Shown here piece after piece: positions 625-64,000 of a stretch of DNA of 64,000 nucleotides. The notes under the pieces were generated by a model that made no database searches, had not been told where the DNA came from, and was given only the letters and a program-made list of their open reading frames with translations. Positions within the stretch are counted from its first letter, which is position 1, and each line of letters opens with the position of its first letter. Position numbers and translations under genes: made by a program. Origin of the DNA: Minisyncoccota bacterium (GTDB taxonomy: Bacteria; Patescibacteriota; Microgenomatia; PFEM01; JAFGMK01); assembly GCA_016927565.1 (NCBI GenBank), contig JAFGMK010000018.1, positions 13,119 to 77,118 of the forward strand. The letters run 5' to 3'.

Positions 625-771
625 GACTGTTGAATAATGTCTTGATCCATTGTTATTCTGATCCCGCCCCGTCATTCAGAGGCCGAAGACCGAAGAATCC
701 CTTCGGGTTCAAGCCGGGGATCCTTCGTTTTACTCAGGATAACGGTGAGAAAATTTTTATTCAGCAGCCTC
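625..771 (+). repeat. Structured intergenic element, family copy A
   Basis: The closing stem is GUUAUUCUGA/UCAGGAUAAC. Relative to copy C, the third base pair is U-A instead of C-G, which is a compensatory change. Confidence 0.6.
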
Positions 772-9988: not shown

Positions 9989-10055
9989 ACTGATTTTGAT
10001 TAATCATTTTTTTCTTTAAATTATTTTAGCCAAAAAAAACCGGATTAGCAAACTT

Positions 10056-10186
10056 TAAAATGGCGAGACTGTTGAATAATATCTCAGCCGCTTGTCATTC
10101 TGAGGCTAAAAGCCGAAGATCCCCGTCCGGAAGAAATCCTTCGTTATGCTCAGGATGACGATGCGAAAAAGAATATCCAACACTCT
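10056..10186 (+). repeat. Structured intergenic element, family copy B (diverged and shortened), about 200 nt upstream of dnaA
   Basis: It shares TTGAATAAT, GTCATTCTGAGG, GCCGAAGA, CCTTCGTT and CTCAGGATGACG with the other copies. Its closing stem is extended to 11 bp. Confidence 0.5.
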
Positions 10187-10393
10187 CAAAACAGCTGAAC
10201 CTCCGGGATTTAATCAATTTTTTTTTCCTCTAAGCCAGAAACCAAACAATTGAAGAATCGACTCTTTAAGCTTCTGGCGGAAGCCGGCCGAGACATTTAT
10301 CCCCAACTGTTTTTTAACCCTTGACCGGTTGTGGAAAACTTGCTTAAATGATTTCTGCTGCCCTTCTTATTTGGCTTCAATTTAAGATCATTT

Positions 10394-13221: not shown

Positions 13222-13247
13222 ACGGGTTTGGGATTAGTTAGCTATCC

Positions 13248-13282
13248 GATCCCGGATCGAAGGATTAAGACGATCCGGGATC
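13248..13282. repeat. Palindromic element GATCCCGGATCG-N11-CGATCCGGGATC, copy 1 of 3, between convergent gene ends
   Basis: A perfect 12-bp inverted repeat with an 11-nt loop. Related copies lie at 33460-33494 and 34685-34720. Confidence 0.6.
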
Positions 13283-13298
13283 AGTCATTTTTTGTCAC

Positions 13299-14336: not shown

Positions 14337-14350
14337 GATTTTATTTTGTC

Positions 14351-17300: not shown

Positions 17301-18154
17301 ATTTCAGGCTCATCCTCCAACAGCTCGTCAAGCAGGTCGTTGAAATCGGGGGTGACGGTTACCGGGATTGGCTCATTATCACCGGCGCGGCCGTATTGAG
17401 CAATAGGGGCTTCTTCTTGCTGGGGTGACGGCCGGCTTGGCGGAGACAGAGGCGGGGTGAGGGGATGAGGAACAGTGGCTGCTGGTCTGGTTTTGGGCAG
17501 AGCAGCAGCTCTGGGCGGAGGAGGGTTGGGATTAAAATCTCGGGGAAAGGGTTTGCTTCTGACGGCATGGTCTCTCCGCCCTCCCAGATCAACATTGGCT
17601 AAGATAGTGAGTCGGCCGGGCCGGATTTCGGCGGGATTGCCGCGAGAGTCAGTGATTGGGCCTCCGTTGCTTTCCCGAATTAAAGCAAAAAGATTTTCCG
17701 GTTTTTCTTCAAGCGCCTGGGCCAGTCTTTCGGCTTCTTCTTGACTGGTTATCCAGACTGCCCGCAAAGCGTTGCTTCTGGCCCCACCGGTACCTTCATC
17801 AGGGCCTCTTTGGTCAATGTGATGACCGTGAACGGCTGCTAAAGTAATCACATCATTAGGACTGAATTTGCCTTTTAAATTTCCTTTTACTTTTGGGGGG
17901 ATGGCAGGACTGCTAAGAGGAACCTGAATAACACGGCTGTAGCCTTCCTGAGGAACATCATATCCGGGGAGAGTTAGCCGGACTTCGCTGTCAATAGGCG
18001 TGCTTTGAAGTAAATCGTAAACTTGATTATCGCCCCGGACCTGATAACCTCTGGGAGAATAATTTTCGATTGCCTGGCCTTTGATTGCAAATTTTTCTGC
18101 GTGACCAGTGGTGGATTCTGTATTAATGGCGGCCATTAGAAGTAATGATACCAA
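14351..18154 (-). CDS. Giant 1267-aa membrane protein with a C-terminal M23 (LytM) metallopeptidase domain; candidate T4SS cell-wall hydrolase
   Basis: The C-terminus carries FVNSTGNSEGNHLHYELRG and GGSHDPDGAYSNSIDIAAGEGTPVYA, which are M23 signatures. The central part has a block of 4-5 TM helices, and there are Pro-rich linkers. It sits directly downstream of VirB4. Confidence 0.7.
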   Translation of the reverse strand: MVSLLLMAAINTESTTGHAEKFAIKGQAIENYSPRGYQVRGDNQVYDLLQSTPIDSEVRLTLPGYDVPQEGYSRVIQVPLSSPAIPPKVKGNLKGKFSPNDVITLAAVHGHHIDQRGPDEGTGGARSNALRAVWITSQEEAERLAQALEEKPENLFALIRESNGGPITDSRGNPAEIRPGRLTILANVDLGGRRDHAVRSKPFPRDFNPNPPPPRAAALPKTRPAATVPHPLTPPLSPPSRPSPQQEEAPIAQYGRAGDNEPIPVTVTPDFNDLLDELLEDEPEIQEAIEEAKKRQRELHPFLAIIPGFDNSFETYARQKIKEAVLGSIRQNLPPGATREQAETALKEALKAYWVSIADKDREIEKMVAEMQTVIEPEIIGQELAPETQKKLDELPVDETGHYQPPPRRTPPAPARRRRPSPTPTRPEEPPAPAEPAPVSAEPAPVSEEANLFQFFFNRSPTPVRSQILKQLAPYLEKHPQYGPQHPLVILANGVRLEDIDETIIQLEAILRDVAPGNIDVNQGLIGQYRHLRNNLLKFEEEHPKIAEALRLAFDKERRRGFTKSRLEKIREKLGLPQLKLRLAEIKQKIKVPERLKKIWQGITSGLGKTLKIIGKGLGTPFKLAGAGLEKLILILNRSGIGRPFAWILTQGRQLFTTGARYVGQAGKFVGEYAGRASRALLRPFKKAYAWVQQSLKAARKAVKEKAAELAGKGAAWLAKKLGIKGSVNLAALALPTGVTQVLAIFGFYDMAVSLVEAIPVIGKPLGLLIDIAAGPIGMLRRGFKIFGGLITFRYFREGQKEGGLKGNLKQIFNILGLAGPLLMAAFFTLGPTALLIGAGLVIGSVVIIGSLSTIAATTAVLATTTTTLVTTGTTAFLAWLWQWQIRLNLRRIIALYLILISLSTFIVVLISGGAFMVTPQETPQGRFEEEIISSAYIDVVKTAVPGEVANPLQTKEPAIINYRIEIYAVENALTNITVSNETVIHNLNPDVQGEYQVVKDASGNQIRLWDSSNSELIPLILNPDEVIVLEYDVALVRSAIESQVGVEITDISQIHDSWLIDTVIATADVIIDPDDPEQNIIGESQSASARVKIGDPSEMIPTGWPTSGFITQGPRAVGGSHDPDGAYSNSIDIAAGEGTPVYATHNGTAYFYRDGGKGGTGGNWIKLCSSLGCDHFETRYVHLQKFATEFSDIDDGGNTSVSFCQLIGFVNSTGNSEGNHLHYELRGNPGLGVDILSYVPATSPPIEEKVYLPPYLDRINVSSSCP

Positions 18155-18189
18155 TTTTCGGCTTGGGAGTAAATAGGCGGGGACTCTTT

Positions 18190-20151
18190 TTATTCCCGGA
18201 AATTACCGGTCAGAGAAGCTACTTCGGCTGGTGAAGCTGCGTTTTGGGGAGTGACGGTTTCTATCCGGAAGGCTGATTCATCCGGCGGCAGATTGGGAGT
18301 AAGGGTGATTTTGGCTTGAGCCTTGGCGGCTTCAATTTTTTTTCTTTTCTCCTCAGCCAGGCGGAGGAGTTCTTCCGGATTACTGGTAATTAAGTTGTGC
18401 TCTTCAGGAGAGGCAACGACACGGATAGCCACATGATTAGCTCCGGCAAAGAAAAGGCCCTCGCCGACATCAGCCGCCAAAAGGAGATGTCTTTCTCCTT
18501 CGGAAAGGTAAAAAACCTCAGCTAATTTGTCAATCGCGGCCGGCGATTGCTTCATCAGGATTTGAATGGAGGAATTAGTGACGATTTCCTTACCGTATTC
18601 GGTTGCAAAAAAGTCTTCAACATCCTGGGTGATGGTGGTTAATCCCAGGTAGTATTTCCGGGCTCTTTTGGCAATTGAACGCAGGAAATTAGCCGAATCG
18701 GGATAACGCATCATGTACCAGGCTTCGTCAACGACCATGATTCTTTTTTTCATCTCTTTTCTGACTCTGGTCCAGATATAGTCAAGAATAATAAACATCG
18801 CTACCGGCCGGAGAGTGTCTTCCAGATCTCTCAGGGAAAAAGCGGTGAAGGGATTGCTCAGGTCGACGTTCGAATGTTGATCAAAAATACCCCGGAATGA
18901 GCCTCTGACGAACTTTTCAATCCGGTCGGCTAAAGATCGGGCTTCGGCTTCTTCCATGCCGGTGAGAGCTTTATAGAGATCTTCCATTAGGGGAGGTTCG
19001 TTTTGTTGAGTTGCCGGATCGGGGGTGATGCCTTTCATTTTGTAGGTGAGAACCAGAGCGCGGTCAAGAGTGGCTTCCTCGGAAGGGGTCAGATGGCCCA
19101 TGACTACCTTAAAAAGCGAGTGAAGGGAAAGGATTTTTTGATTCAGCTCGTTTTCGCCTTCAGCATAAACGGCTGAAAGATCGAAGGGGTTAATTTTAGC
19201 TTGAGAGCCGAAGCCGAAACTAATGTATTGACCGTCAAGAGTTTCGCAGAGCGTTTTATATTCTGATTCAGGATCGATCACAATGACTTCTGCCCCGAAC
19301 ATTATCGAGCGGAGCGATTCCAGTTTGACCATGTAAGATTTCCCGGCCCCGCTTTTGGCAAAAACAACCGCATTGGCGTTTTCCATGGTAAAGCGGTCGA
19401 AAATTACCAGAGAGTCATTGTGTTCATTGATGCCGTAAAGAATGCCTTCGTTAGCTGTCAGTTCTGAAGAGGTAAAGGGAAAGGTGGTGGCGAGAGAGGT
19501 GGTGTCCATGTTGCGGCTGATCATCAATTTATCGGTGCAGATGGGGATGGTGGTTTTAAAACCTTCTTCCATTTGAAGGGTGGCGTGTTTGGAAATAATT
19601 AAAAGTGAGCCTAGGGTGGCCTCGATTTGTTTTGAAACCTGATTCAGTTCTTCTAAGGATTCAGCCGGGATGGTGACATATAGGGAAAACTGGAAAAAGC
19701 GCTCGGCGCCTTTGACTAATTCTGCCTGGAGTGACTGGGCGTCTTCCAGTTTTGCCTGAGTGCCGGGGTCGACTATCCGGCCTCTCTCGAGGTCGGTTTT
19801 AATCTCAGCTTCCATTTCGGCAATCTTTCTTCTTAATTTGTCCAGGATTGAACGTCCTTCGACCGGATAAACAAACATCGAAACATCAAGGGAATGGTCA
19901 AAGTTAATCAGAGGGGCCAGCCAGTTGGCGGAAACATAGCGGGGATAGCCGGAGACGAAAAGAGTTCTGAAATAGGTGGTGCCGATTTTGATGTGGTCAA
20001 AATCCACTTCAATGGCTGAGGGGGCGATGATGTCTTGGATGCTGACAATTCCCTGAGACAATTTGTCTTCAACCGAAGCCGCTGATAGCCCCTGATTTTT
20101 AACCGGAGCCGTTTTTTGTTTTTTCTTTTTGAACTTGTCTAAAAAGGTCAT
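18190..20151 (-). CDS. virB4: Type IV secretion ATPase, VirB4/TrbE/TraC family
   Basis: Walker A VVFAKSGAGKSYMV and Walker B IMVVDEAWYMM are present. The 653-aa size fits the family. Confidence 0.8.
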   Translation of the reverse strand: MTFLDKFKKKKQKTAPVKNQGLSAASVEDKLSQGIVSIQDIIAPSAIEVDFDHIKIGTTYFRTLFVSGYPRYVSANWLAPLINFDHSLDVSMFVYPVEGRSILDKLRRKIAEMEAEIKTDLERGRIVDPGTQAKLEDAQSLQAELVKGAERFFQFSLYVTIPAESLEELNQVSKQIEATLGSLLIISKHATLQMEEGFKTTIPICTDKLMISRNMDTTSLATTFPFTSSELTANEGILYGINEHNDSLVIFDRFTMENANAVVFAKSGAGKSYMVKLESLRSIMFGAEVIVIDPESEYKTLCETLDGQYISFGFGSQAKINPFDLSAVYAEGENELNQKILSLHSLFKVVMGHLTPSEEATLDRALVLTYKMKGITPDPATQQNEPPLMEDLYKALTGMEEAEARSLADRIEKFVRGSFRGIFDQHSNVDLSNPFTAFSLRDLEDTLRPVAMFIILDYIWTRVRKEMKKRIMVVDEAWYMMRYPDSANFLRSIAKRARKYYLGLTTITQDVEDFFATEYGKEIVTNSSIQILMKQSPAAIDKLAEVFYLSEGERHLLLAADVGEGLFFAGANHVAIRVVASPEEHNLITSNPEELLRLAEEKRKKIEAAKAQAKITLTPNLPPDESAFRIETVTPQNAASPAEVASLTGNFRE

Positions 20152-20177
20152 GGTTCTTCTTTTTTTATAGGCTGTTT

Positions 20178-21278
20178 CTAAGGAACAGGACTGGTTATTT
20201 CGGGCGGTTTTTCCTCCTGAGGCGCCACTGCTTTGACTAATTTATCGATTTCTGCCTGAGTACTTTCTTCTCCGGTTTCATTAACGGCTTCTTCTGCTCG
20301 GGGAAGAGTGGTGGTAGGAAATGTTTTCGCCGAGACCGGCCGGGAGGGAAGAGTTTGATCTTGAGATGAAGTTTCGATCTGAGGCGGTAGGGAATTTTTA
20401 GTTGAAACCGGTTTGATTGCCGGTGGATTTGGGGCCGAAGAAGAAGCGGGTGCCGGTGTTGGGATTGGCGGCGATGGTGGATTTGGGGCCGGCGGAGCCG
20501 GAGGAAGCGGGGATTCGGGTGTCTGGCCGGATTTTTCTGTCGGTTCGGCGGCGGTTTCAGCCGGAATGACAACCGGAGCCTGAATAAAATTAGCGGCAGG
20601 CTTAACTAAGGGCGTCTCATAATCGGCTGAGGTAGATAAAATCTGCCCGAAGCTGTTGGGATTGTAGATCTCATAAAAAAGCTTGATTAATTCCTGGTTG
20701 TTTAATTGCCTTGATCTTAAACCCAGGCGGTTTAATAGTCTGATGAGATGATCTCTTTTGGGGAATAAGTTGGTTTTGGCTTTGTTTAGGACATAGTCCT
20801 TGGGAAAGGGCAGGCCCCGCTTTTTTTTAAGCTTAGAGCCTAAGTTTTGGCTGATTCCCAGTTCCAAAGATGACATGGGGATAATGATATAAAAACTTTT
20901 TTCCAGGACATTGTTGACCTGGACGGTATTTTGAATAAATTCGTGGTATTTTTGAATTTGAGTCTTAAATTCTTTTTTGACGGTCCTTTTTTCCTGTTCG
21001 GTAATTAATTTCAGGTAGGCGGTGATGTCTTTTCTTTTTGACCGGATTAAAATCTGGATTGAGAAGGTGAGCGAGTTCAGAAGGGCGCCATAAGCATAAA
21101 TGGCGGCATCTTGTTCTTTCTCGGACAAAAGGCCAAAGTTAATCGCAGTGGTGGTAATGATTAAGATGCAGCTGCCGTCCTTGAGAATAACGATGCCTTC
21201 CTTAATGTCTTCAATTTCCAAAAAAGATTGGGTGCTGGCTTTGACTGGGGTGGTGCTGGCAGGTTTTCCTGATTTCAT
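20178..21278 (-). CDS. Hypothetical T4SS-associated protein with a Pro-rich C-terminal half
   Basis: The 366-aa ORF lies between the PrgI-like gene and virB4. A PAPPAPNPPSPPIPTPAP tract is present. Confidence 0.35.
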   Translation of the reverse strand: MKSGKPASTTPVKASTQSFLEIEDIKEGIVILKDGSCILIITTTAINFGLLSEKEQDAAIYAYGALLNSLTFSIQILIRSKRKDITAYLKLITEQEKRTVKKEFKTQIQKYHEFIQNTVQVNNVLEKSFYIIIPMSSLELGISQNLGSKLKKKRGLPFPKDYVLNKAKTNLFPKRDHLIRLLNRLGLRSRQLNNQELIKLFYEIYNPNSFGQILSTSADYETPLVKPAANFIQAPVVIPAETAAEPTEKSGQTPESPLPPAPPAPNPPSPPIPTPAPASSSAPNPPAIKPVSTKNSLPPQIETSSQDQTLPSRPVSAKTFPTTTLPRAEEAVNETGEESTQAEIDKLVKAVAPQEEKPPEITSPVP

Positions 21279-22318
21279 TTGGCTCTGATTTCAATGGGAG
21301 GAACAATTTCTCCGGTCAGATTTAACTTGATTATATCAAAAACCAACTCTTCTTTTTCAACCTCGATTTCATAAGTGCCGTTGCTTAAAGGAGTAACAAT
21401 CTGGAATTGGCCGAGGCGATTAGTTCTTAAAGCTCTGACGGGTAAACCCTCTCTGTCTCTGATTTCAATAATTGCATTCTCGACGATTTTGCCTTCCCGG
21501 TTTAAAACCATGCCGACGATAATGTTAGGCTGGGTGGAGGCGTTGGGAATGGGAAGTTCGGTTGAGGTTTTAGCCTGAACGCGGAGCTGGTCTTTTCTAG
21601 GTTTAGACGGCGAAATTTTTATCCGGGGTAATTTGACTGACTTCGGCTTCTTTTTTTCTTGGGTGGGAGGAGCCGGCAGGGAGGTTTTTTTAGCCGTTGG
21701 CGGGAAGCCGATTTTAATAACGGCTGCCTCTGAAGGCGGAGCCGATAATTTACGGGGTTTGATTTTGAGCTGGGGCATGAGCTGGTCGGTGATTTTTAGT
21801 CTTTTGGGTTCAGGAGTGATGGTTGGCGGCAGTTTGGTTGAGGCAAAAAGGTTGTTAATGGATGATAAGGCTGCGGTTTCTTCTTTTTCCGCCTCGGTTT
21901 CAGAAGCCGGGGGTGAAAGAGTATTGAGATATTTTAAAAGATTGGCCTGAGTCAGTTGAGTTGCCGGAGCAGTGGCGGTTTGGGAAATTGGCCGCAATCC
22001 CGGAGTATCTGCTAAAAAGGCAGGCAGTCTTTTTTCCTTTCGCCAGACAAACATCGTGGGGGTGTAAATTGAGTTGATAAAGGCCGTTAGCCATTGGTCC
22101 AGCGGCCGGTCTTCCAGAGGCAGAAATGCCAGAGCAAAACCAAGAAGTCCGAATAAAAGAACAAAAAACCATTTAAATAATCCCGGGATCGGGAGAACAT
22201 AGAAAAAAAGAGCCAGGACCAAGCCGCCGGCCAATTGAGAAAACTGGCGCAAAGTCATATCGCCGATCAGGCGAAATTGATAGGCTGATATCTGCTGAGG
22301 AATCGGGTGTTGTTCCAT
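21275..22318 (-). CDS. PrgI/VirB3-like membrane protein with a long C-terminal extension
   Basis: The N-terminus IPQQISAYQFRLIGDMTLRQFSQLAGGLVLALFFYVLPIP is followed by a second TM helix. It resembles the PrgI-family consensus (VPQ.I..EDKI.GPLT.KQF.YL.GG) as I remember it. Confidence 0.5.
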   Translation of the reverse strand: MEQHPIPQQISAYQFRLIGDMTLRQFSQLAGGLVLALFFYVLPIPGLFKWFFVLLFGLLGFALAFLPLEDRPLDQWLTAFINSIYTPTMFVWRKEKRLPAFLADTPGLRPISQTATAPATQLTQANLLKYLNTLSPPASETEAEKEETAALSSINNLFASTKLPPTITPEPKRLKITDQLMPQLKIKPRKLSAPPSEAAVIKIGFPPTAKKTSLPAPPTQEKKKPKSVKLPRIKISPSKPRKDQLRVQAKTSTELPIPNASTQPNIIVGMVLNREGKIVENAIIEIRDREGLPVRALRTNRLGQFQIVTPLSNGTYEIEVEKEELVFDIIKLNLTGEIVPPIEIRAK

Positions 22319-30954: not shown

Positions 30955-31365
30955 TTAGTTAGTAGGTTCGGGAAGGGTAAAGATGGTGACATTGAGGCCG
31001 GTGATCAGCTTGATGGCCTGTAAAATGAGCCAAGCGGCCAGAATAACGGCTAAGCCAATCACTGCGTAAGTTAGGGTTCCGCTCGCTTTTTGAGCCTGTT
31101 TGGGGTCTTCGCCGGCAGTTAAATACTGAAAACCGCCGATTACAAACATTACTAAAACCCCCATTCCGGCCAGGGTGGTGACAACCATCACTACCCGTCG
31201 GAAAACAAACTCCAAGTCATAAATCTGAGCCGGTTGATCAGTTTGGGACCAGCCGGAGACCGGAGAGAGTTCCAAAAACAAGGTTAAAACAAAAAAAGAC
31301 CCCCAGAAGAATAATTGATTTAAAGTTTTTTTTAATTTCATTAGTTTTTTAAACCGACTCTCCAA
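30955..31365 (-). CDS. T4SS pilin-like protein (CPR T4SS_pilin/VirB2-like), paralogue 6
   Basis: A signal/TM segment is followed by FQYLTAGEDPKQAQKASG and a second TM helix (two hydrophobic helices with a divergent GEDP form of the GGDK motif). Confidence 0.6.
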   Translation of the reverse strand: MESRFKKLMKLKKTLNQLFFWGSFFVLTLFLELSPVSGWSQTDQPAQIYDLEFVFRRVVMVVTTLAGMGVLVMFVIGGFQYLTAGEDPKQAQKASGTLTYAVIGLAVILAAWLILQAIKLITGLNVTIFTLPEPTN

Positions 31366-31366
31366 G

Positions 31367-31407
31367 TTATCTCCCGTTCTTTCCGCTGGGGGGAGAACGG
31401 GAGATAA
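31367..31407 (-). terminator. Intergenic stem-loop with a 14-bp perfect stem between pilin paralogues 5 and 6; candidate attenuator or terminator
   Basis: gttatctcccgttct-(13 nt)-agaacgggagataat. A hairpin after the first pilin gene is common in pilin operons. The downstream U-tract is weak. Confidence 0.35.
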
Positions 31408-31422
31408 TCTTGGATTTGCCGC

Positions 31423-31839
31423 TTAGCTGGCAACACTCAGGTCGCTCAGGTTAAGCTGAAGCAGACTGACACCAAAGAACATCTGAATCAATTGGATAAT
31501 TGCCCAAGAACCAAAGACAATTAAAAGACCAACCAGGGCGGCAGTGATGGTGTTACGGGCGGCTTCGGTTTTGCCCTTGTCGCCACCAGAGGTGATCCAC
31601 TGGATACCGCCGTAGATCAAAAAGCCAAAAGCGATCATAGCGGCAATGACCAGTGCCAGAACAATCAAACTCCTGATCATTCGGGGAAGGCTGATGTTGC
31701 CTAAACTGGCGAATTGGTCACTTGGTGAAATGTTAAACGTCAAGTCATCGGCCAATACAGGGCTAGCGGCCGTAATCAACGGCAGAGCTGCCAAAGCCAG
31801 AACCCCGGCTGTTTTAATCAGTTTTTTCATATTTTTCAC
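31423..31839 (-). CDS. T4SS pilin-like protein, paralogue 5
   Basis: A signal peptide is followed by IQWITSGGDKGKTEAARNTITAALVGLLIVF. Confidence 0.65.
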   Translation of the reverse strand: MKNMKKLIKTAGVLALAALPLITAASPVLADDLTFNISPSDQFASLGNISLPRMIRSLIVLALVIAAMIAFGFLIYGGIQWITSGGDKGKTEAARNTITAALVGLLIVFGSWAIIQLIQMFFGVSLLQLNLSDLSVAS

Positions 31840-31941
31840 CCCCCTTCAAATTCTCAAAAAAAGACTTTATTATTTAATTTTTAAAAAAAAAGATTGCTAA
31901 GTCAACCCGGTCAGCCCGATTTCATCTAGAAAACCGGTTTT

Positions 31942-32301
31942 TTAGGAACTGACCGTCGGTAGTTTAATCTGAATTAGATTAATTCCAAATATTGCTCCGA
32001 TTGCTTTTATTATAGCAAAAAGGGAGAAGAGAATAAAGAGTCCGAGAAGCGCCTGGGCAATCTTGTCTTTGGCCTGCGCCAGCAGGGCTTTGTCACCGCC
32101 GGCGCTCATCCAGTGATAAGTACCCATTACCAGATAGAGGAAAGCGGATAAAAAGCCGATAATTAATAGGGTTGTAACGGTAATTGAAATAATTTTTCCT
32201 AAAATTTCAACCCCGTCACCGCTGCCCAGAACCGGCAGGGCTTCGTTGACAATTCCTTGAGCTAAAACAGCTGAACTAATCAAAAAGGTTAAGAGCCCCA
32301 T
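31942..32301 (-). CDS. T4SS pilin-like protein, paralogue 4
   Basis: YHWMSAGGDKALLAQAKDKIAQALLGLFILF flanked by two TM helices. Confidence 0.65.
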   Translation of the reverse strand: MGLLTFLISSAVLAQGIVNEALPVLGSGDGVEILGKIISITVTTLLIIGFLSAFLYLVMGTYHWMSAGGDKALLAQAKDKIAQALLGLFILFSLFAIIKAIGAIFGINLIQIKLPTVSS

Positions 32302-32657
32302 ATGTCTCCCAATAGGCTGCCGGGCTGAAGGATGGAAAAGCCCAAAACAAAGCCTAAGACTGAAATAATGGCGTAGGCGGCCACCAGGACAACCAGGCCG
32401 ATAACGGCTTGAACAATTTTATCTCGGGCTTTCTGGAGTTTATTTTTATCGCCGCCGGCTTCGATCCATTGGAAAGCGGCAGTGATAAAAATAAATAGGA
32501 AATAGATGCCTCCGCCAATTGTCATAATCCCGATTATTACTGAGATTACTTTTTCCAAAAGGGAAAGGGGTTCGGCCGGGTTAATGTTGGTATACATCGG
32601 GCCGACGCCGACAAAGTTGCCCAGACTGACCGAACTGGCATGCACTTTTCCGATCAT
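32289..32657 (-). CDS. T4SS pilin-like protein, paralogue 3
   Basis: FQWIEAGGDKNKLQKARDKIVQAVIGLVVLV flanked by two TM helices. Confidence 0.65.
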   Translation of the reverse strand: MIGKVHASSVSLGNFVGVGPMYTNINPAEPLSLLEKVISVIIGIMTIGGGIYFLFIFITAAFQWIEAGGDKNKLQKARDKIVQAVIGLVVLVAAYAIISVLGFVLGFSILQPGSLLGDIWGS

Positions 32658-32681
32658 ATTTTTTAAAGAAATTAATTTTGA

Positions 32682-33056
32682 TTAGTTAGGTGTATAAATT
32701 TTCGGATTGATAATCGCGGTCGGATCATTAAAGATAAGCCAGCCCAAGATAGCCGCCAGAGCCAGGGAACCGGCAACTACCGCTACTCCTAAAAGTGATT
32801 GCCAAATTTTGTTCCAGGCCTGGACAACTTTGTCCATATTGCCGTCGGCATTAAGAAAGCCGTAGCCGGCAGTGATAACATTGAAAAGAGCCCAGATACC
32901 GCTGAAGACAATGATGGTTCTTAAAAGGTTGTTAGCCAGGATAATAAGACCCTGGCCTTCAGTGCTGGGGTAAGAATCGGGGCTGATTGTTGCCCAGGGA
33001 TCGCTGATAGAACCGAAAACAGTCAGCATTCTAAAAAATAGGATTAAGAATATCAA
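32682..33056 (-). CDS. T4SS pilin-like protein, paralogue 2 (divergent motif)
   Basis: Two TM helices flank NADGNMDKVVQAWNKIWQSLLG. Confidence 0.5.
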   Translation of the reverse strand: MIFLILFFRMLTVFGSISDPWATISPDSYPSTEGQGLIILANNLLRTIIVFSGIWALFNVITAGYGFLNADGNMDKVVQAWNKIWQSLLGVAVVAGSLALAAILGWLIFNDPTAIINPKIYTPN

Positions 33057-33357
33057 TGCCGGTAATGGCGCCGATAATCTGAATTATCCAATAAGAACTA
33101 ATAATAATCAAAAAACCTACGATGGCAACGGTAACCATTCCTTTATTTTTGGCAAAACCTTCTTTTTCACCTTTGCCTGCGTTCATGATAATCCCAAACC
33201 CGCCAGCGATCAAGAGGAAGAAAAAGATAACCCCGGCGAGAATATAAATGTTGGGCAGCATTACTTGAATTAGGTGACCGAAGGAAGTAAAAACCGGCGG
33301 ATTAAGGTCCGGTTCAAAGATATCGACGCCGCCGCCGGCGAAAACAGGTTTAATCAT
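33031..33357 (-). CDS. T4SS pilin-like protein, paralogue 1 (divergent motif)
   Basis: Two TM helices flank NAGKGEKEGFAKNKGMVTVAIVGFLII. Confidence 0.5.
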   Translation of the reverse strand: MIKPVFAGGGVDIFEPDLNPPVFTSFGHLIQVMLPNIYILAGVIFFFLLIAGGFGIIMNAGKGEKEGFAKNKGMVTVAIVGFLIIISSYWIIQIIGAITGIDILNPIF

Positions 33358-33459
33358 GATTATAATTTTAACTGAAAGGAAGTTTGTTTTGCAAATTAGG
33401 AGGGGTTGTTGGCCGAAAATCTTGTTCTTTTTATTCTGGTCGATCAGACAGCTCCCTCC

Positions 33460-33494
33460 GGTCCCGGATCGAAATCCGCAGACGGTCCGGGATC
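33460..33494. repeat. Palindromic element GGTCCCGGATCG-N11-CGGTCCGGGATC, copy 2 of 3
   Basis: The arms differ from copy 1 at two symmetric positions, so that G-U pairs replace A-U. The loop AAATCCGCAGA resembles the copy 3 loop. Confidence 0.55.
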
Positions 33495-33512
33495 ATTATC
33501 TTTGTTAAAGGC

Positions 33513-38221: not shown

Positions 38222-38839
38222 TTAAAGAGATTCTGGAACTCCGGAAATGGTTTTGATGATTTGGTAAAGCCAGTAAGAAGCAATAACGATGGCGAAGCCA
38301 ATGACGGCGTTGGTTAAAATCTTTTGGCCGGCCGCGGCCGATTTGGGATCGCCGCTGGAGGTCAAAAGCTGGAAACCGCCCTTGATGATAAAGACCAAAA
38401 GAATCAGGCCGGCGGCAACGAACAGATAGGGTAAGATTTGACCAATTACGCCACCCAGGCTCTCATTGGCAAAGGTAAAGCCGGGGGTTTTGAGGAAATC
38501 AGGCAAGTCATCGTAGTCCGGCAACCCCGAACCTATCGGAGAGCCAAGTGTTGGAGTCGGGAGAACTGGAGTGGGAGTAGGATCGCTGGCTAGCTGGCAG
38601 ATACCGCGCGGGTTGGTATCCCAACAAACTTCAACGCCGACCTCGCAGGAAATGGGACCACTGCTTCCTGGAGTTATGGTGTAGCAGTCGTTTTGACTGG
38701 GTCGGTAATACCAGTTTTCCGGACAGCAGAATCCGCCGACGGTGGCTTGAGCCTGCGGCTTGGTTAAAAGAGTAATCAATGGAAAAATAACCAAAAGCAA
38801 AAAGATTATTTTTGCGAAGAAGAAGAATTTCTTTTTCAT
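38222..38839 (-). CDS. Pilin-domain fusion: signal peptide, Cys-rich ectodomain, then a C-terminal T4SS-pilin-like module
   Basis: The C-terminus ILPYLFVAAGLILLVFIIKGGFQLLTSSGDPKSAAAGQKILTNAVIGFAIVIASYWLYQII aligns with the pilin paralogues at 30955-33357. The N-terminal 110 aa contain 7 Cys. Confidence 0.55.
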   Translation of the reverse strand: MKKKFFFFAKIIFLLLVIFPLITLLTKPQAQATVGGFCCPENWYYRPSQNDCYTITPGSSGPISCEVGVEVCWDTNPRGICQLASDPTPTPVLPTPTLGSPIGSGLPDYDDLPDFLKTPGFTFANESLGGVIGQILPYLFVAAGLILLVFIIKGGFQLLTSSGDPKSAAAGQKILTNAVIGFAIVIASYWLYQIIKTISGVPESL

Positions 38840-38860
38840 TGTCTTGATAAATCCGTAAGC

Positions 38861-39619
38861 TTAATCCAATCCCGGTATCTGCAATATGTTGACGCCGATG
38901 AGCCTTAAAATGAAGATGGCAAAGATGATTAACAGGAGTCCGCTGATGGCGGCGGTTAAAAGCTCTCTGCCGGCCTGGACCCGCTCAGGTTTGCCGGAAG
39001 CAGTCAAAATCATAAAGCCGGCAATGACCATAAGAATAAAGGCAACTCCACCGGCAATGGCCATGGCGCGACCGATGAGCCAGGGACTAAACTGGTCAGC
39101 TCTGGTCGGAATGCAACCCAAGGCGGTCTTGGTTCCGGTAAGCTCGCCATTAATGAGACATTGAACATCGGGTAATTTTCTGGCTTGGCATTCACAACCA
39201 ATGCAGTTTACGGTATCAATGATGACCGGCCGGGTGTCTTCGGGACAGCGGCCGACCTCGTCGTTTTGGATGGGAACACAGCCGAAAAAGGTTTTGTTAG
39301 TTCCGCAGCCGCCGCCTTCGGGAGTGCGGGTCGGAGTGGGCTTAGGAACAGCACAGGCGCCGGCATTGTCAGGGGTCTGTTCACAAATTTCCCCGGGGTC
39401 GCAATTAATGGGTTGTGAAGTTCCCGGAGTTCGACCAATGCAGCGGCCGGAGCTAGGAGAATAATAATACTCGGACGCGATATCACAACAAGGGTCACCA
39501 GGAGCGGCTTGAGCCTGAGATTTTATAACTGAACCCATCAGTGGGAGGAGAATTAAGAGCCAAACAGCGGTTTTCGTTAAAAACGAAACAATCCTTTTCA
39601 TATGCTTTAATTTTAACAT
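38861..39619 (-). CDS. Pilin-domain fusion: signal peptide, Cys-rich ectodomain (about 14 Cys), then a C-terminal T4SS-pilin-like module
   Basis: The C-terminus LIGRAMAIAGGVAFILMVIAGFMILTASGKPERVQAGRELLTAAISGLLLIIFAIFILRLI matches the pilin module. Confidence 0.55.
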   Translation of the reverse strand: MLKLKHMKRIVSFLTKTAVWLLILLPLMGSVIKSQAQAAPGDPCCDIASEYYYSPSSGRCIGRTPGTSQPINCDPGEICEQTPDNAGACAVPKPTPTRTPEGGGCGTNKTFFGCVPIQNDEVGRCPEDTRPVIIDTVNCIGCECQARKLPDVQCLINGELTGTKTALGCIPTRADQFSPWLIGRAMAIAGGVAFILMVIAGFMILTASGKPERVQAGRELLTAAISGLLLIIFAIFILRLIGVNILQIPGLD

Positions 39620-39711
39620 AAAAAAGATTCCAGATACAAGAGGGAAGCGAAGACCGCCCTCAAAAAGATGGTATTATAAAAAAGGCAGAATAGTCAAATA
39701 GCAAAAAGGCG

Positions 39712-39862
39712 GGAGATTATTGAATAAAGTCTTGATCCATTGTCATTCTGACCCTGCCTTGTCATTCAGAGGCCGAAGGCCGAAGAATCCCTTCGGGTTC
39801 AAGCCGGGGATTCTTCGCTTCTTTCAGGATGACGGCGAGAAAATTTTTATTCAACAGTCTCA
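39712..39862 (+). repeat. Structured roughly 150-nt intergenic element, family copy C (candidate ncRNA or cis-leader)
   Basis: About 90% identical to the copy at 625-771, with a diverged copy at 10056-10186. The closing stem is GUCAUUCUGA/UCAGGAUGAC. An inner perfect 11-bp stem is CGAAGAAUCCC/GGGAUUCUUCG, and there is a GGCC-GAA-GGCC hairpin. Confidence 0.6.
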
Positions 39863-57951: not shown

Positions 57952-58027
57952 TCCCCGGTAGCTCAATTGGCAGAGCGTTCGCCTGTTAAGCGAAGGGTTA
58001 CTGGTTCGAGTCCAGTCCGGGGAGCCA
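57952..58027 (+). tRNA. tRNA-Asn(GTT); integration site of the downstream element
   Basis: Acceptor UCCCCGG/CCGGGGA and anticodon loop CUGUUAA. The T-arm ACUGGUUCGAGUCCAGU is identical to E. coli tRNA-Asn. A CCA is encoded. Confidence 0.85.
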
Positions 58028-59497
58028 GTCCCTACTTACTCTAACTTTTCTCGAGTTAAGTAGTTTTTTGAAGAGTGGCGTATAGGCAACTTTCGCCACT
58101 TTTTTGTCTTTAATATCAAACCTCTCAAAGAAGATAGCTAAGTAGTGTCTTTTGGCTTCAAAGCTAGCGTCACAATAAACCTCATAGATGTTGTTGGTGA
58201 GCTTTAATACTTCTTCTATAACATCAACGTCAAAGCCTCTTTGGTTTTCAATAGTGGCAATATCATTCTCTAAGTTTTGAATCTGGAAGTTAAGGTCCTG
58301 GTGTTTGCGTTTGAAAGATTCTTTGTCGATAGTCTTGTCTAAAAGATTATCCTCTAAGATATTGCGCTTATCTTCTAGCTTTTTAATGGCATTGCGTACA
58401 CCTTGAATTTCGCTATCTCTTGACTCTCTAGACTGTTTAACTAGGCTTTTAGCCTTGTCTAAGACAGCTTGTATAAACTCTTCTGATAACTGTATCTTCT
58501 TAAATTCTTTAGCTACAGCTTTTTCAAGCTCATCTAGGGGGATGTAGTGGCTACAGCCATTTCTAGCGCTTCCATGATAATAGGCCTTGTTTTTAGCATG
58601 AACACCATCTCCATACAATCGAGCGTCACATTCTTGGCAGTAAGCAAAGCCATTCAAGAGCCACTTATACTTTCTTCTTCTGCAAGCATTGTGGTTGTTG
58701 CGAGCCATTATCTTTTGACAAGTCTCGAATATTTCTGGTGTAGTTAAACTCTTATGGTTTCCTTTATGGAGCTTCCCGTTGTATCTCATCCATTTAACAT
58801 AAAAAGGATTTTTAAGAATCTCATAAACAATACTGCGGTACATTTTTTTACCAGTTTTACTACGTAGTTTTTTATCATTAAGATAATCGACCATTTCATC
58901 GACTGAATAGTTACCAGTAGAGTAGAGCCTAAATAACTCACTTATGAGGAAACTTTTTTCTTTGTCTACTTTTATGACACGGTTGGGTTTGTCTTCTGAG
59001 CCTAGATTGACATTTTTATAGCCTAAAGGTGCCCAACCTGGCCAATTGCCGTCTTGAATTTTCTTTTCTAAACTTTTTTTAACCTTGCGACCAGTTAAAC
59101 GACTATAGAAAGCATTAATACTAGCTAACATTCCATCCATAAGCTTACCTTCAGCAGAATCATCAATCATTGGTTGGCTTATGGCTATTAGTTGAGTGTT
59201 GCAGTCTTTAAGAACATGTTTGATTTTGTAGTGGTCAAACTCATTTCGAGCTATTCTGTCTGTATCGATAACCAAGGCCACGTCTATAGTCTCTTCTTGG
59301 CATTGGATAATCATATCTTCCAAACCTTCTCGGCCAACTGTCTTGGTGCCAGTTTTGCCACCATCTTTGAATACACCAACTACTTGATAGTTGTTTTTCT
59401 TAGCCCATTCAGCACACTTTTCCTTTTGAACATCAAGAGATAAACCGCCTACTTGGCCTGGGTCTGACACTCTGGAATAGATAACTGCTTTTTTCAT
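57998..59497 (-). CDS. Large serine recombinase (integrase)
   Basis: The N-terminal resolvase catalytic domain AVIYSRVSDPGQ...GKTGTKTVGREGLEDMI is followed by a recombinase domain and a zinc ribbon CQECDARLYGDG...CSHY. The last about 10 codons read through the tRNA-Asn 3' end. Confidence 0.85.
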   Translation of the reverse strand: MKKAVIYSRVSDPGQVGGLSLDVQKEKCAEWAKKNNYQVVGVFKDGGKTGTKTVGREGLEDMIIQCQEETIDVALVIDTDRIARNEFDHYKIKHVLKDCNTQLIAISQPMIDDSAEGKLMDGMLASINAFYSRLTGRKVKKSLEKKIQDGNWPGWAPLGYKNVNLGSEDKPNRVIKVDKEKSFLISELFRLYSTGNYSVDEMVDYLNDKKLRSKTGKKMYRSIVYEILKNPFYVKWMRYNGKLHKGNHKSLTTPEIFETCQKIMARNNHNACRRRKYKWLLNGFAYCQECDARLYGDGVHAKNKAYYHGSARNGCSHYIPLDELEKAVAKEFKKIQLSEEFIQAVLDKAKSLVKQSRESRDSEIQGVRNAIKKLEDKRNILEDNLLDKTIDKESFKRKHQDLNFQIQNLENDIATIENQRGFDVDVIEEVLKLTNNIYEVYCDASFEAKRHYLAIFFERFDIKDKKVAKVAYTPLFKKLLNSRKVRVSRDWLPGLDSNQ

Positions 59498-59679
59498 TTT
59501 ATTTTCTCTCTAGAAAATCTATCGCCCTTTATTGAAATTAGTTTGAATTTATTTCTTTTTGAATAACCACGTACTATTTTTTCTTGGGTTTCAGCCTGGG
59601 ATTTTTGAGTAAATTGTTTTGTGCTAGAAACACGGTTATAAAGTGCTGTTTTTTGCATTTTTATGACTCCTTTCTTCAA
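59494..59679 (-). pseudogene. Remnant encoding a resolvase N-terminus-like peptide (KTALYNRVSSTKQ...), directly upstream of the intact recombinase
   Basis: The 61-aa ORF has the pattern A(L/V)xYxRVSxxxQ, which aligns with the first about 55 aa of the neighbouring recombinase and then stops. Confidence 0.35.
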
Positions 59680-60015
59680 ATCCTTTAACTCTATTTAATA
59701 TGTTGTTCATTACGGTATCTTCAGGAGATAAAGAATTATCTCTAATAATATGCGCTTTTGATTCAACAACCTGTTTAACACGCTTCCAGGCAGGGTATAT
59801 GCCATGAACAAAACGAAAACCAACTTCAGATAACCTAACTTCAGCTAGTTTTTGTGCCATCAATTCGAGCCAGTTGTTATTATCTTTGAGCATATTTATT
59901 GAATATTCTTTAACATTACAATATACACATTGTACTACATAAATAATATTTAGTCAACAATATACACATAGCACACAAATTGCATTTATAACATAAATGA
60001 GTTACAATTGGAGCC

Positions 60016-60243
60016 ATGCAAGTAGAGTATAAATACACTGTAGAAGATATTGCCGAAATGCTTACCGTTAGTACAGAAACGGTTAGGCGTTGGTGTCGTA
60101 ACAAACAAATAAATCACATTAAGTTGCCAGGGAGGAAAGGTGGATTTAGATTTTCCAAAAATGATATTGTCGATTTTGTCGCCAAGCTTAATAGCAATCC
60201 TTATGATAAGGGGGGTACCCAGGGTTCAGAAAATTCAACTTAA
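60016..60243 (+). CDS. Helix-turn-helix DNA-binding protein (excisionase or regulator-like)
   Basis: YTVEDIAEMLTVSTETVRRWCRNKQINHIKLPG is an HTH signature. It faces the recombinase across a promoter region that contains repeats. Confidence 0.55.
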   Translation: MQVEYKYTVEDIAEMLTVSTETVRRWCRNKQINHIKLPGRKGGFRFSKNDIVDFVAKLNSNPYDKGGTQGSENST

Positions 60244-60480
60244 AAACTGGATGGGTATCTCTCAATAAATATTGCCTTTCTCCTTATATCCCCCCTTTTG
60301 ATAGTGTTTAACGTAAGCTGGGTTGAGTGAACCTGTTCTCAATTCCCTCATCTATGAGGCAACTCTTGTCTTTAGCCTTAAAATCAAGACTTTGACTCTT
60401 CTTTTAATAGACTCATTTATGAGTGAAGTCCCGCATATATTGCGGTTAAGCCTAAACTTATTAATTAGAAAACTAAGCGT

Positions 60481-61128
60481 TTAGGTTGTTCTTTTGTCTT
60501 CAGACTTTATTTCAACAACTTCACACATTGCATGCAATCGACTTACTAACCTATCGCCAATCAGACTTGCCAACTTTGTTTCTCCAAAGTTTGTAGTAAT
60601 AATGGTTTGCTTTACCCTGTTGTAGCGACCATCGATAATCAGATATAGGATTGAATTGGTCCAATCGCTTGTCTTTTCAGCGCCAATATCATCTAGTACT
60701 AATAACTCCACATCAACAATATTTTGTATAAAGAGCATGTTTTTGTCGTTTTCTCCATCAAAATTTGTTTGCATAGTAGTTAAAAGCTCGACAAGGTTGA
60801 CGTAAGCAATATCGCTTTCTTCATCGTTCCTTAGGCGTTCTTGTAGGGTCCATGCCGCTAGATGACTTTTACCCACTCCCGCATCTCCGAATAGATAGAG
60901 GCCACTTTCAGTGTCTTTCTTGGCAATTAAATTAGCCTGTTTCCAGGCCTGGACATTTCCAGTCTCAGCTTTAAATGGTTTATCGAGAAATAGTGGTGGA
61001 ATACCAGCGTCCCCAATTATTGAGTAATCAGAATCGTAATAACTATATTTACTTTTTTCTGAATATAGTCTTTTAGGTACGATACTTGCTAGGTTTTGGG
61101 AGATTCCTGTTTTCATAAATTTTTTCAC
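60481..61128 (-). CDS. IstB/DnaC-like AAA+ ATPase (helicase-loader-like)
   Basis: Walker A LYLFGDAGVGKSHLA and Walker B LLVLDDIGAEK are present, as is sensor TIITTN. Confidence 0.75.
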   Translation of the reverse strand: MKKFMKTGISQNLASIVPKRLYSEKSKYSYYDSDYSIIGDAGIPPLFLDKPFKAETGNVQAWKQANLIAKKDTESGLYLFGDAGVGKSHLAAWTLQERLRNDEESDIAYVNLVELLTTMQTNFDGENDKNMLFIQNIVDVELLVLDDIGAEKTSDWTNSILYLIIDGRYNRVKQTIITTNFGETKLASLIGDRLVSRLHAMCEVVEIKSEDKRTT

Positions 61129-61618
61129 CTCCTTTACTTTTTTTATTTTTATAACTTTGTATATATTTATTATTTGTAGATACTTTTATTTGTTTTTCTT
61201 TCTCTTTGTATGTTCCAGTTTCTGGATTAGTGACTGTTCCAATTTTTGGACCAGTACTATTCCAACTATTGATAAAGTAGTTATCCAATTCTTGATATAA
61301 AAAGTCGGATAGTCGATAATAAATCATTGCCCTGGAACCTTTTTTGACCTTAACTATTAAATTTTCTTCATCATCAAACCTTTCAATATAGCCATTATCA
61401 ATTAGCCAGTTTATTGCGGGCGAAATTGTAGCTTTAACGTACTTAGTTTTCTTTTCAATGAAGCCATACCTGATAAAATCTTTTTCTTTTTGAAAGCCAA
61501 GTGTTTGCCTGAATATTAAAAGAAGAATCTTAAATGTAGAGTTGGGAAACATTGACTGATTGTCCGCAAGCCAGTTATATGACGCTAGCTGGAAAAGAGG
61601 GTCTTTGCGTCTTTTCAT
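61073..61618 (-). CDS. Replication-initiation/replisome-organiser-like protein (winged helix; DnaD-like N-terminus)
   Basis: Its position directly upstream of the DnaC-like ATPase gives the typical phage or plasmid replication-module arrangement. The sequence is weakly diagnostic. Confidence 0.35.
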   Translation of the reverse strand: MKRRKDPLFQLASYNWLADNQSMFPNSTFKILLLIFRQTLGFQKEKDFIRYGFIEKKTKYVKATISPAINWLIDNGYIERFDDEENLIVKVKKGSRAMIYYRLSDFLYQELDNYFINSWNSTGPKIGTVTNPETGTYKEKEKQIKVSTNNKYIQSYKNKKSKGGEKIYENRNLPKPSKYRT

Positions 61619-61866
61619 AGCGTTTCCCTCCTTTCAGCAAAAAGCCTATCTTTTAGTTCGTTTAGGCAAGAAAACAATTTTTTGGGGTTTATTAAAGCAA
61701 CATCGTCCCAATACTCGTTTATGAGTTTTTGACAGAGCAGTGTGTTTTCAAATACAAACAATACTTTTTTAGGAGAAATTTTTTCTAGACAGAGGAGAGG
61801 TACATTACCAGTAGCTAGTAAATAGGTAGCGATATAAAGCTGGTGTGTTTTAAATACGTTTTTCAT
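61615..61866 (-). CDS. Small conserved hypothetical protein (DUF5659-like by memory)
   Basis: MKNVFKTHQLYIATYLLATG...KKVLFVFEN...EYWDD resembles a short family often seen on CPR mobile elements. Confidence 0.35.
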   Translation of the reverse strand: MKNVFKTHQLYIATYLLATGNVPLLCLEKISPKKVLFVFENTLLCQKLINEYWDDVALINPKKLFSCLNELKDRLFAERRETL

Positions 61867-62159
61867 TTCAATTTACCTCTCAATCTCAATATTGGTTGCT
61901 TATATTGAGCAAACAAAAAAGCAACCGTTTAATGCTAGTTAAACTAGCTTCAACGATTGCCACCCGAATTAAGAGGTCTTAGTTTCTAAAAGCCAATGCT
62001 TTGAAACCAAGGCAATGTTTTGTTGCAAATTGAGATAAGTATTGAGGTTTTCGTAACACTACAAAAACACTACTTTCTCTATGCTAAAACTAGATTATCA
62101 CATTTCAATTTTGCGGTCAATTGGTTATAATTGGAAGTAGGTTATAATGAGGTATATTT

Positions 62160-62357
62160 ATGATTAAAGAACCAAAGGTTAAAAAAATCTTAACCATAGG
62201 AGAAGCGTCAGAAATGCTTGGTGTGACTGTAACAACACTAAGAAAATGGGATAAAAATGGCCATTTTAAGGCCTTGAGAATTGGTACTCGCAAGGGCGTT
62301 GGTGATAGACGTTACCGATTAGAGGATATTAAGAAGTATTTGATAGCAGATAAATAG
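62160..62357 (+). CDS. MerR-family or excisionase-like HTH protein
   Basis: ILTIGEASEMLGVTVTTLRKWDKNGHFKALRIGTRKGVGDRRYRLEDIKKY. Confidence 0.6.
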   Translation: MIKEPKVKKILTIGEASEMLGVTVTTLRKWDKNGHFKALRIGTRKGVGDRRYRLEDIKKYLIADK

Positions 62358-62393
62358 AAAATTAAAGAAAATTAAAAGAGAATTTAGAAAATT

Positions 62394-63944: not shown

Positions 63945-64000
63945 AAAAAATTGTTGAACAAATCACCAAAGAATTAAGTTTAAGAAAACCACAGGCATTA
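63942..64000 (+). CDS. 5' end of an ORF translationally coupled to the methyltransferase; possibly a Type III Res (helicase-like) subunit
   Basis: MKKIVEQITKELSLRKPQAL... runs to the window end. LRKPQ resembles the helicase Q/motif-I lead-in L-R-x-Y-Q. Only 19 codons are visible. Confidence 0.3.

Follow-up and report, generated by a model that had tools for sequence, protein, structure and literature searches.

A structured repeat in three intergenic spacers

A repeat of roughly 150 nt occurs three times in the 64,000-nt stretch of contig JAFGMK010000018.1 (Minisyncoccota bacterium, assembly GCA_016927565.1) analysed here and referred to below as the window. Copy A lies at 623-771, copy B at 10065-10187 and copy C at 39713-39861, with ends placed to within 1 nt (622/623-771/772, 10064/10065-10187/10188 and 39712/39713-39861/39862, respectively). 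A preliminary description of this DNA, which singled out copy C as a candidate novel non-coding RNA (ncRNA) or leader, put all three copies near these positions but began copy B about 8 nt too far to the left, at 10056. All are in the plus orientation and, as the flanking genes confirm, all are intergenic. Copies A and C, each 149 bp long, are 88% identical over 151 nt, in line with the 90% first estimated. Copy B (123 bp) is indeed shortened: a duplicated half-site of 19 nt is missing, as are 7 nt from the central loop.

A profile search of the 64-kb window with filters off (nhmmer --max) recovered exactly copies A, B and C (E values of 4e-28, 6e-25 and 4e-30), with scores of 83-100 bits in the plus orientation versus ∼26-31 bits on the other strand. 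A helix-anchored pattern gave three matches in the window and none in 100 shuffles. The repeat is far above chance expectation. The sequences flanking copies A, B and C are mutually unrelated. A possible fourth copy at 23336 was rejected, being an inverted-repeat-like match within an open reading frame (ORF) and having no partner.

Every copy is bounded by 15-nt imperfect terminal inverted repeats, GAGAYTRTTGAATAA...TTATTCARCAGYCTC (repeat consensus SAGRYTGTTGAAWAA), with 2-3 mismatches within the inverted-repeat pairs of each window copy, and the element as a whole forms a nested palindrome. Inverted repeats at both ends are a hallmark of MITEs (miniature inverted-repeat transposable elements). 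Other properties of this class are seen as well: the element is small (123-149 bp) and non-coding, is present in three copies in 64 kb, and differs in presence between related genomes.

Two inverted, tagged hairpin units form the core

The helices previously noted in the repeat correspond to the arms of two hairpin units in inverted arrangement, the left one reading GTCATTCTGA-(mini-hairpin)-GAAGAATC and the right one GATCCTTC-(mini-hairpin)-TCAGGATGAC, with a variable spacer between them. Each unit combines a (C/T)GTC tag that is left unpaired with a stem of 5 bp, a tandem G.A/A.G step, a mini-hairpin that is small and variable, and a short tail. In the window, the tag is TGTC in the left units (TGTT in copy A) and, on the minus strand, CGTC in the right units (CGTT in copy A). 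The stem starts A-T/T-A in every window unit, as ATTCT/AGAAT on the left and ATCCT/AGGAT on the right. The core can thus be described, by sequence, as a predicted head-to-head heterodimer of CGTC/TGTC-tagged repetitive extragenic palindrome (REP) units, enclosed in a 15-bp inverted-repeat shell. The closing helix GUYAUUCUGA/UCAGGAURAC is present, as is the near-perfect 11-bp helix CGAAGAAUCCC/GGGAUUCUUCG, which is perfect in copy C only; the GGCC-GAA-GGCC hairpin is found in copy C, the corresponding elements being GGCC/GACC in copy A and GGC-UAAAA-GCC in copy B.

Copy A, delimited by repeat comparison and nhmmer, begins with the left terminal inverted repeat GAGACTGTTGAATAA (623-637, by inverted-repeat search). 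Then come a duplicated half-site, TTGTTATTCTGA, made up of the tag and the 5′ half of a unit (650-661, plus strand); the left, T-type REP unit GTCATTCAGA-GGCCGAAGACC-GAAGAATC (671-699, plus strand); a spacer with complementary ends, CCC...GGGG (700-718); the right, C-type REP unit, which on the minus strand reads GTTATCCTGA-GTAAAAC-GAAGGATC (719-743); and the right terminal inverted repeat TTATTCAGCAGCCTC (757-771). A half-site duplication like that of copy A is found also in contigs L061, L119 and L016.

Copy B, defined in the same way, has the left terminal inverted repeat GAGACTGTTGAATAA (10065-10079), a left unit GTCATTCTGA-GGCTAAAAGCC-GAAGATC whose 3′ half is short of one A (10094-10121, plus strand), a right unit reading GTCATCCTGA-GCATAAC-GAAGGATT on the minus strand (10135-10159), and the right terminal inverted repeat ATATCCAACACTCTC (10173-10187), with three mismatches to the left repeat. 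Copy C, characterized by repeat comparison, folding and nhmmer, comprises the left terminal inverted repeat GAGATTATTGAATAA (39713-39727), the duplicated half-site TTGTCATTCTGA (39740-39751, plus strand), the left T-type unit GTCATTCAGA-GGCCGAAGGCC-GAAGAATC, which includes the GGCC-GAA-GGCC hairpin (39761-39789, plus strand), the spacer CCTTCGGGTTCAAGCCGGG, again with complementary ends (39790-39808), and the right C-type unit, GTCATCCTGA-AAGAAGC-GAAGAATC on the minus strand (39809-39833). This last unit is degenerate and has no fold on its own. The right terminal inverted repeat of copy C, TTATTCAACAGTCTC (39847-39861), matches the consensus with no mismatches.

The core recurs in many bacterial phyla

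To place the core, we scanned the contigs of one genome per species with the pattern TTGTYATTCTGA-N44-74-TCAGGATRACG, for which about two chance matches are expected by our own estimate. Among the matches listed are at least 120 stretches from ∼18 bacterial phyla, as judged by record title: Patescibacteria (many classes), Planctomycetota, Verrucomicrobiota, Bacillota, Bacteroidota, Rhodothermota, Pseudomonadota (alpha, beta and gamma), Acidobacteriota, Myxococcota, Omnitrophota, Chloroflexota, Nitrospirota, Elusimicrobiota, Actinomycetota, Aquificota, Thermotogota, Melainabacteria and Binatota. A profile built from dimers of other phyla only matches the three window cores at E values of 9e-7 to 2.5e-5. 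The core is not specific to the host genome.

The tag layout of the window copies holds in 125 matches elsewhere, again among those listed, and the first A-T and T-A stem pairs are invariant in 34/34 aligned dimers. The third stem pair, tabulated for 308 units among the matches listed, is T-A in 153, C-G in 145 and non-Watson-Crick in 10; units with T-A are without exception left units, and those with C-G are inverted right units. Mini-hairpins are typically RCGNAGY (e.g. GCGAAGC, GCGCAGC), and at least two anchored pairs are possible in 81% of them, compared to 14% of shuffles. Left and right mini-hairpins of the same dimer are no more alike than random pairs (similarity 0.47 versus 0.41). 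Spacer ends are complementary over at least 3 bp in 55% of cases versus 5% of shuffles. When 34 dimers of equal length were aligned, folding each arm locally paired 97.6% of cells, and folding the dimer as one long hairpin paired 89.5%.

The family consensus, ATCCTGAGC-GAA-GCGAAGGAT, can be drawn with nine stem positions (two of them G.A) and a 3-nt loop, or with eight and a 5-nt loop. Left units of the window have 11 stem positions, and the right units of copies B and C are without the inner stem. The family tail reads CTC or CCC and pairs with the tail of the other arm. Three related elements (L127, 6131-6262; L128, ∼2985-3128; L129, 1767-1907) have an almost identical spacer and right unit, and wholly different left-unit mini-hairpins (ACGAAGT, GTCTGATTGATCGGAC and TCCCGCCGTGGCGGGA, respectively), a pattern that suggests cassette-like replacement rather than point mutation.

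Folding potential and covariation

The predicted plus-strand folds are considerably more stable than those of shuffles (copy C, −60.9 kcal/mol, z = −5.5; copy A, z = −4.1; copy B, z = −4.6). The minus strand folds well too (z = −3.8). A search of the 64 kb against Rfam returned no family at the gathering score; at permissive thresholds, the best match on copy C was to mir-145, of the generic hairpin sort, at 22.6 bits where the cut-off is 50. Two known motifs were considered and dropped. A hammerhead-like core (CUGA...GAA around a GNRA-like hairpin) was excluded by inspection, the N-G-A of CUGANGA being absent, and a K-turn was ruled out, as there is no 3-nt bulge and the tandem G.A lies within a continuous helix.

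One argument advanced for an RNA was a compensatory change, C-G in copy C and U-A in copy A. The change is real, but it is one of 18 differences between these copies, 16 of which are transitions. On the long-hairpin fold of copy C, these differences leave one pair compensated, six changed on one side yet still pairing, and four broken (two of the four fall in the outer repeats). Random placement of 18 changes produces at least one compensated pair in 43% of trials (P ∼ 0.43). Variation at the same tag position was seen in four of the family matches listed, with compensation in none. Covariation is no greater than palindromic DNA yields. Across 11 related elements, 84.8% of cells in the outer repeats pair, with symmetric changes at five pairs.

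The other argument was a U-G wobble, pairable on the plus strand only and hence taken to mark that strand as the transcript. In the long hairpin of the 34 aligned dimers, U-G is fixed at one position and an A-C mismatch occupies the mirror position in 33/34. Since A-C corresponds to G-U on the minus strand, the wobble does not tell which strand is transcribed. The two positions swap roles on the minus strand; the supposedly strand-specific wobble makes up half of a heterodimer signature that is symmetric. Exceptions at the level of single units, U-G in four and C-A in six, are equally rare, so there is no strand asymmetry.

Signs of mobility in related elements

Of 125 family matches among those listed, 85 are intergenic, and their orientations (24/28/18/15) show no bias to genes. 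Other members lie inside ORFs, in both orientations. In-frame copies were found inside rpoC (L016, 3351-3442), pcrA/uvrD (L057, 1850-1923) and an hsp70-type gene of a Rickettsiales metagenome-assembled genome (MAG; L094, 2550-2626), with further in-frame members in genes of L010, L044, L106 and L110. The rpoC, pcrA/uvrD and hsp70-type genes remain intact to either side of the insert, where the host proteins can be aligned to solved structures. In the rpoC product of a Saccharibacteria MAG (L016), for example, the alignments are interrupted at residue 926, and residue 927 is the first of the peptide encoded by the element. Such copies add ∼25-30 residues, RHPE(R)SEGS...(A)QNDK in one orientation and CHSE...TQDDE in the other.

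About one-third of dimers are wrapped in outer inverted repeats, and these differ between genomes. A Planctomycetota MAG (MFD02416.bin.2.218) carries a composite of 121-123 bp in which the same core sits inside CCSGGATTATTCATAAA inverted repeats (contigs L005, L017, L021, L023, L026, L041, L045, L062, L072, L090 and L107). Identical YTAR 4-mers, seven of them non-palindromic, flank 11 of 12 shelled copies. This composite is a clear MITE with a 4-bp target duplication. A metagenome scan for the core together with a window-type right end gave seven loci, and window-like ends (SAGRYTGTTGAAWAA) are also present in contigs of Omnitrophota and Nitrospirota. Exact 5-bp direct repeats flank relatives whose inverted repeats are of the window type (ATACT in L127, AACTT in L128, CTCAA in L130), with boundaries set by the repeat alignment; L070 is flanked by TTAG/TTAG. 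An inverted-repeat-like match at 12143 of L129 was set aside, as it lies inside coding sequence.

The preliminary description had offered a mobile structured element as a fallback, and the inverted repeats of all three window copies show that this pointed in the right direction. It had also named terminal inverted repeats plus target-site duplications as the signature of a MITE. The former bound all three copies; the latter are clear only in related elements elsewhere.

With respect to vehicles of spread, the core was matched once in viral contigs, not at all in phage records and in two Planktothrix records among plasmids, and hence no main vehicle stands out. The only recombinase in the window is a serine integrase at a tRNA gene: a large serine recombinase (58001-59497, minus strand) adjoins the tRNA gene (57952-58024), and beyond it lie a DnaC/IstB-like ATPase (60484-61128) and an N6/N4 DNA methylase (62394-63941). 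Window positions 57952-64000 look like an element integrated at the tRNA.

Neighbouring genes, promoters and related genomes

Copy A is situated between the stop (785) of an epimerase/DUF4012 gene and a promoter-like site of rplY/L25. Copy B is flanked by the start of a lineage-specific gene of 279 aa (9988, minus strand) and by a conserved dnaA promoter block (10318-10352), and copy C lies between a T4SS-pilin-like gene (type-IV secretion system; start 39619, minus strand) and a SpoIID-domain gene (39890/39893, plus strand). The ORF that abuts copy B (9149-9988, minus strand) is found between rnpA and dnaA and has no Pfam matches; at its position, relatives have nothing or an unrelated 648-aa ORF. 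The T4SS-pilin-like gene belongs to a type-IV-secretion-like cluster (13302-22318, 30958-33357 and 38225-39619) that encodes a TraG/VirB4-like ATPase, a PrgI-like protein, an M23 peptidase protein and at least five proteins with T4SS-pilin domains. Part of this cluster is conserved beside dnaN in relatives. A second small GC-rich palindromic repeat, TCCGRTCCCGGATCGAA...GAYCCGGGATCA, occurs at 13245-13283 and 33457-33495 (79% identity), the former copy between the convergent genes dnaN and 13299-14336.

The closest sampled relatives have DnaA proteins 67-73% identical to that of the window and share the gene order L25 - epimerase ... rnpA - dnaA - dnaN. In four relatives with this gene order (contigs L122-L126), no element is found in the orthologous L25/epimerase and rnpA/dnaA spacers. 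Comparison of these spacers shows that the element entered its three window spacers in the Pacebacteria lineage after its split from the nearest sampled relatives.

The dnaA promoter block, CCCTTGACC..TTGTGGAAAA.TTG.TTAAATGA, is kept upstream of dnaA in L122, L124, L125 and L126 and holds a DnaA-box-like TTTTCCACAA on the other strand. As this conserved block is downstream of copy B, copy B is not a dnaA leader. On the opposite side of the copies, minus-strand promoter-like sites are located at 583-611, 10023-10051 and 39668-39697, such that, at each of A, B and C, the left end is upstream of a −35-like hexamer by 11-15 nt, always in one relative orientation. The promoter of L25 is ancestral, given that TTGACC-17-TAGAAT is present in L122, where the element is absent. 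The common spacing between left end and −35 in these three copies may reflect a choice of target, survival of copies in short spacers or some local function.

Comparison with known repeat families

The core closely resembles the CGTC-tagged REPs defined by Di Nocera, De Gregorio and Rocco (2013, BMC Genomics 14:522; PMC3733652). These have an unpaired CGTC tag, often TGTC, an 8-9-bp stem whose first two positions are complementary A and T, a loop of 4-5 nt and a 3-nt tail with the consensus CCA (PMC3733652). They mostly form head-to-head dimers, frequently heterodimers, separated by spacers with complementary ends. They also include in-frame intragenic copies, notably in replication and repair genes including those of uvrD type, and some dimers are nested in longer genome-specific palindromes, as in Halothiobacillus neapolitanus (PMC3733652). 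The group includes Neisseria dRS3 and Rickettsia RPE-4/RPE-6, was reported in five phyla, mainly in Alphaproteobacteria, and has no associated transposase, its mobiliser being regarded as an open question (PMC3733652).

The elements described here share with this group the tag, the A-T/T-A stem start, the inverted dimers, the structured spacers, the intragenic copies, the nesting in palindromes and the lack of a linked transposase. The fit is loose for stem and loop length and for the tail. There are differences too: among the matches listed, the present core occurs in ∼18 phyla including Patescibacteria rather than in five; its units have a tandem G.A step, a freely exchangeable mini-hairpin and a CTC/CCC rather than CCA tail; and, of the window units, those on the left are longer (11 positions) and those on the right degenerate. 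One caveat here is that likeness was judged by the published description, not by the CGTC-1 to CGTC-4 consensus sequences; ATCCTGA and ATTCTGA have no match in the supplements of that paper. Rickettsia palindromic elements (RPEs), which the same paper cites for in-frame insertion in protein genes (PMC3733652), also bear comparison. Like RPEs, family members reside in frame in essential and repair genes, adding ∼25-30 residues (RHPE...QNDK), whereas the three window copies are all intergenic.

REPINs, attributed to Bertels and Rainey (2011), are said to be REP doublets that form hairpins and are mobilised by REP-associated tyrosine transposases (RAYTs). The window element is similar in that two inverted REP hairpins and a spacer make up one unit, which is dispersed, non-coding and presumed to be handled as single-stranded hairpin DNA. 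REPINs differ in having GTAG tags and a cognate RAYT gene flanked by REPs; the window element has CGTC/TGTC tags, and no Y1 domain is found in window ORFs.

The Correia elements of Neisseria are MITEs of 100-155 bp with terminal inverted repeats and a TA duplication, and are transcribed into hairpins. The window element resembles such MITEs in size (123-149 bp), inverted repeats, non-coding nature, multiple copies and intergenic location, and related copies have target duplications. It departs from them in that the window copies are without a recognisable duplication and no parent insertion sequence (IS) was found in ∼1.2 Mb; moreover, its interior consists of a conserved REP dimer rather than of the deleted interior of an IS. 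Literature searches with sequence strings returned primer coincidences only, and none of the papers searched links Patescibacteria with REPs or MITEs.

Interpretation

Taken together, these data lead us to conclude, with a probability of about 0.78, that the three copies are a non-autonomous palindromic mobile DNA repeat of the MITE/REPIN-like kind rather than a functional-RNA gene. The kind of element has already been described in other bacteria; here it is found in a genome of the candidate phyla radiation (CPR). By analogy with related elements and the REP literature, the element would owe its copying to a transposase working in trans, whose gene lies at another place in the genome or has since been lost. 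One candidate is a DDE enzyme that uses the outer inverted repeats, proposed because shelled relatives carry 4- or 5-bp target duplications. The other is an enzyme of single-strand DNA that recognises hairpins and would act on the tagged units, as RAYTs do on GTAG REPs. The strong predicted RNA fold would then be a by-product of the DNA palindrome, and any effects on neighbouring genes would be secondary.

Several observations weigh against this conclusion. No clean target-site duplication is seen at the window copies: copy A has none, the flanks of copy B (AAAATGGC/AAAACAGC) agree at 6/8 positions, and those of copy C (AAAAAGGCGG/AAAAAGACAGG) form an imperfect 10-mer. Empty-site reconstruction recovered no exact site from relatives, as these are distant (DnaA ≤73%) and their spacers too diverged. 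Pfam scans of ∼50 window ORFs revealed no DDE or Y1 transposase domain, and no IS-sized pair of inverted repeats turned up in the ∼1.2 Mb searched, a small sample; a parent IS with the same ends and a transposase is lacking from the sequence searched. When single arms were folded with generic DNA parameters, the expected hairpins were returned with stabilities no better than those of shuffles, and the right arm of copy C was not predicted to fold alone. Support for local hairpins therefore rests on covariation, not energy. The symmetric changes in the outer repeats suit an RNA helix as well as transposase-bound ends, and the one orientation shared by the copies, with left ends 11-15 nt upstream of a −35-like hexamer, may reflect function or target choice rather than neutrality.

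If the repeat were instead a structured ncRNA, either a small RNA or a 5′ leader made from the plus strand with a functional long hairpin or three-way fold, then its very stable plus-strand fold (z of −4.1 to −5.5), the compensated A/C pair and the common orientation of the three copies would be explained, and copy C, ending ∼30 nt before the SpoIID-domain gene start, might lie in the 5′ untranslated region of that gene. This is very unlikely in our judgement. There is no Rfam match, the minus strand folds well too, the one compensated pair, found alongside four broken ones, is expected by chance, and the U-G is mirrored by A-C in 33/34 aligned dimers. Nor does an RNA gene fit a family that has no orientation preference with respect to genes, inserts in ORFs both ways and is absent from relatives; within the window, copy B precedes a dnaA promoter that is conserved, and no plus-strand gene lies downstream of copy A. 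An element that arrived by mobility and is now kept by the host for local action, for instance insulating or terminating between transcription units, stabilising mRNA ends, binding a protein or serving as a module just upstream of promoters, is a less remote idea, to which the placement of all three left ends 11-15 nt from a −35-like hexamer lends some weight. The adjacent L25 promoter is itself ancestral, and REPs elsewhere have been reported to affect transcript stability and termination (PMC3733652). We nonetheless find such exaptation doubtful: there are only three copies, compact spacers offer few sites where a copy is tolerated, neither strand has a T-run after the hairpin (terminator-like sites are internal), the same promoters work in relatives that have no element, and context across the family is unbiased.

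One could also suppose that nothing moved, and that the copies stem from segmental duplication or recombination of an older spacer, or from misassembly. The source is a MAG, and clean target-site duplications are wanting at the window copies. Yet the flanks are unrelated, the boundaries coincide with the inverted repeats, and homologous elements in unrelated contigs have target duplications. Copy B is found independently in the Logan assembly, where contig L121 (1-104), with an identical dnaA, ends inside it; such a break is as expected of a repeat disrupting short-read assembly. An origin of this sort is almost certainly not the explanation.

Returning to the mobile-repeat interpretation, the breadth of the core invites an extension that we put forward tentatively, thinking it possible rather than probable. 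The ∼50-nt twin-hairpin core, with near-identical 8-10-mers across ∼18 phyla, might be a pan-bacterial module kept constant by a widespread enzyme that recognises tagged hairpins, which would be the 'missing' protein that mobilises CGTC REPs. Such a module would spread inside different MITE shells, one with 5-bp duplications in Patescibacteria and relatives and one with YTAR duplications in Planctomycetota, and the mini-hairpin, swapped among L127, L128 and L129, would serve as a specificity or address element.

The analysis removes a false lead, in that a very stable, repeated 150-nt 'RNA structure' is accounted for as a palindromic selfish DNA element; an RNA gene is unlikely here, and such elements should therefore be masked, not modelled, in ncRNA screens of CPR genomes. 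REP-dimer/MITE elements are present even in a reduced Pacebacteria genome. The CGTC-type core is far more widespread than the five phyla of 2013 and is nested in shells that bear classical target-site duplications. Its spread and its shells both bear on the question of what mobilises CGTC REPs (PMC3733652).

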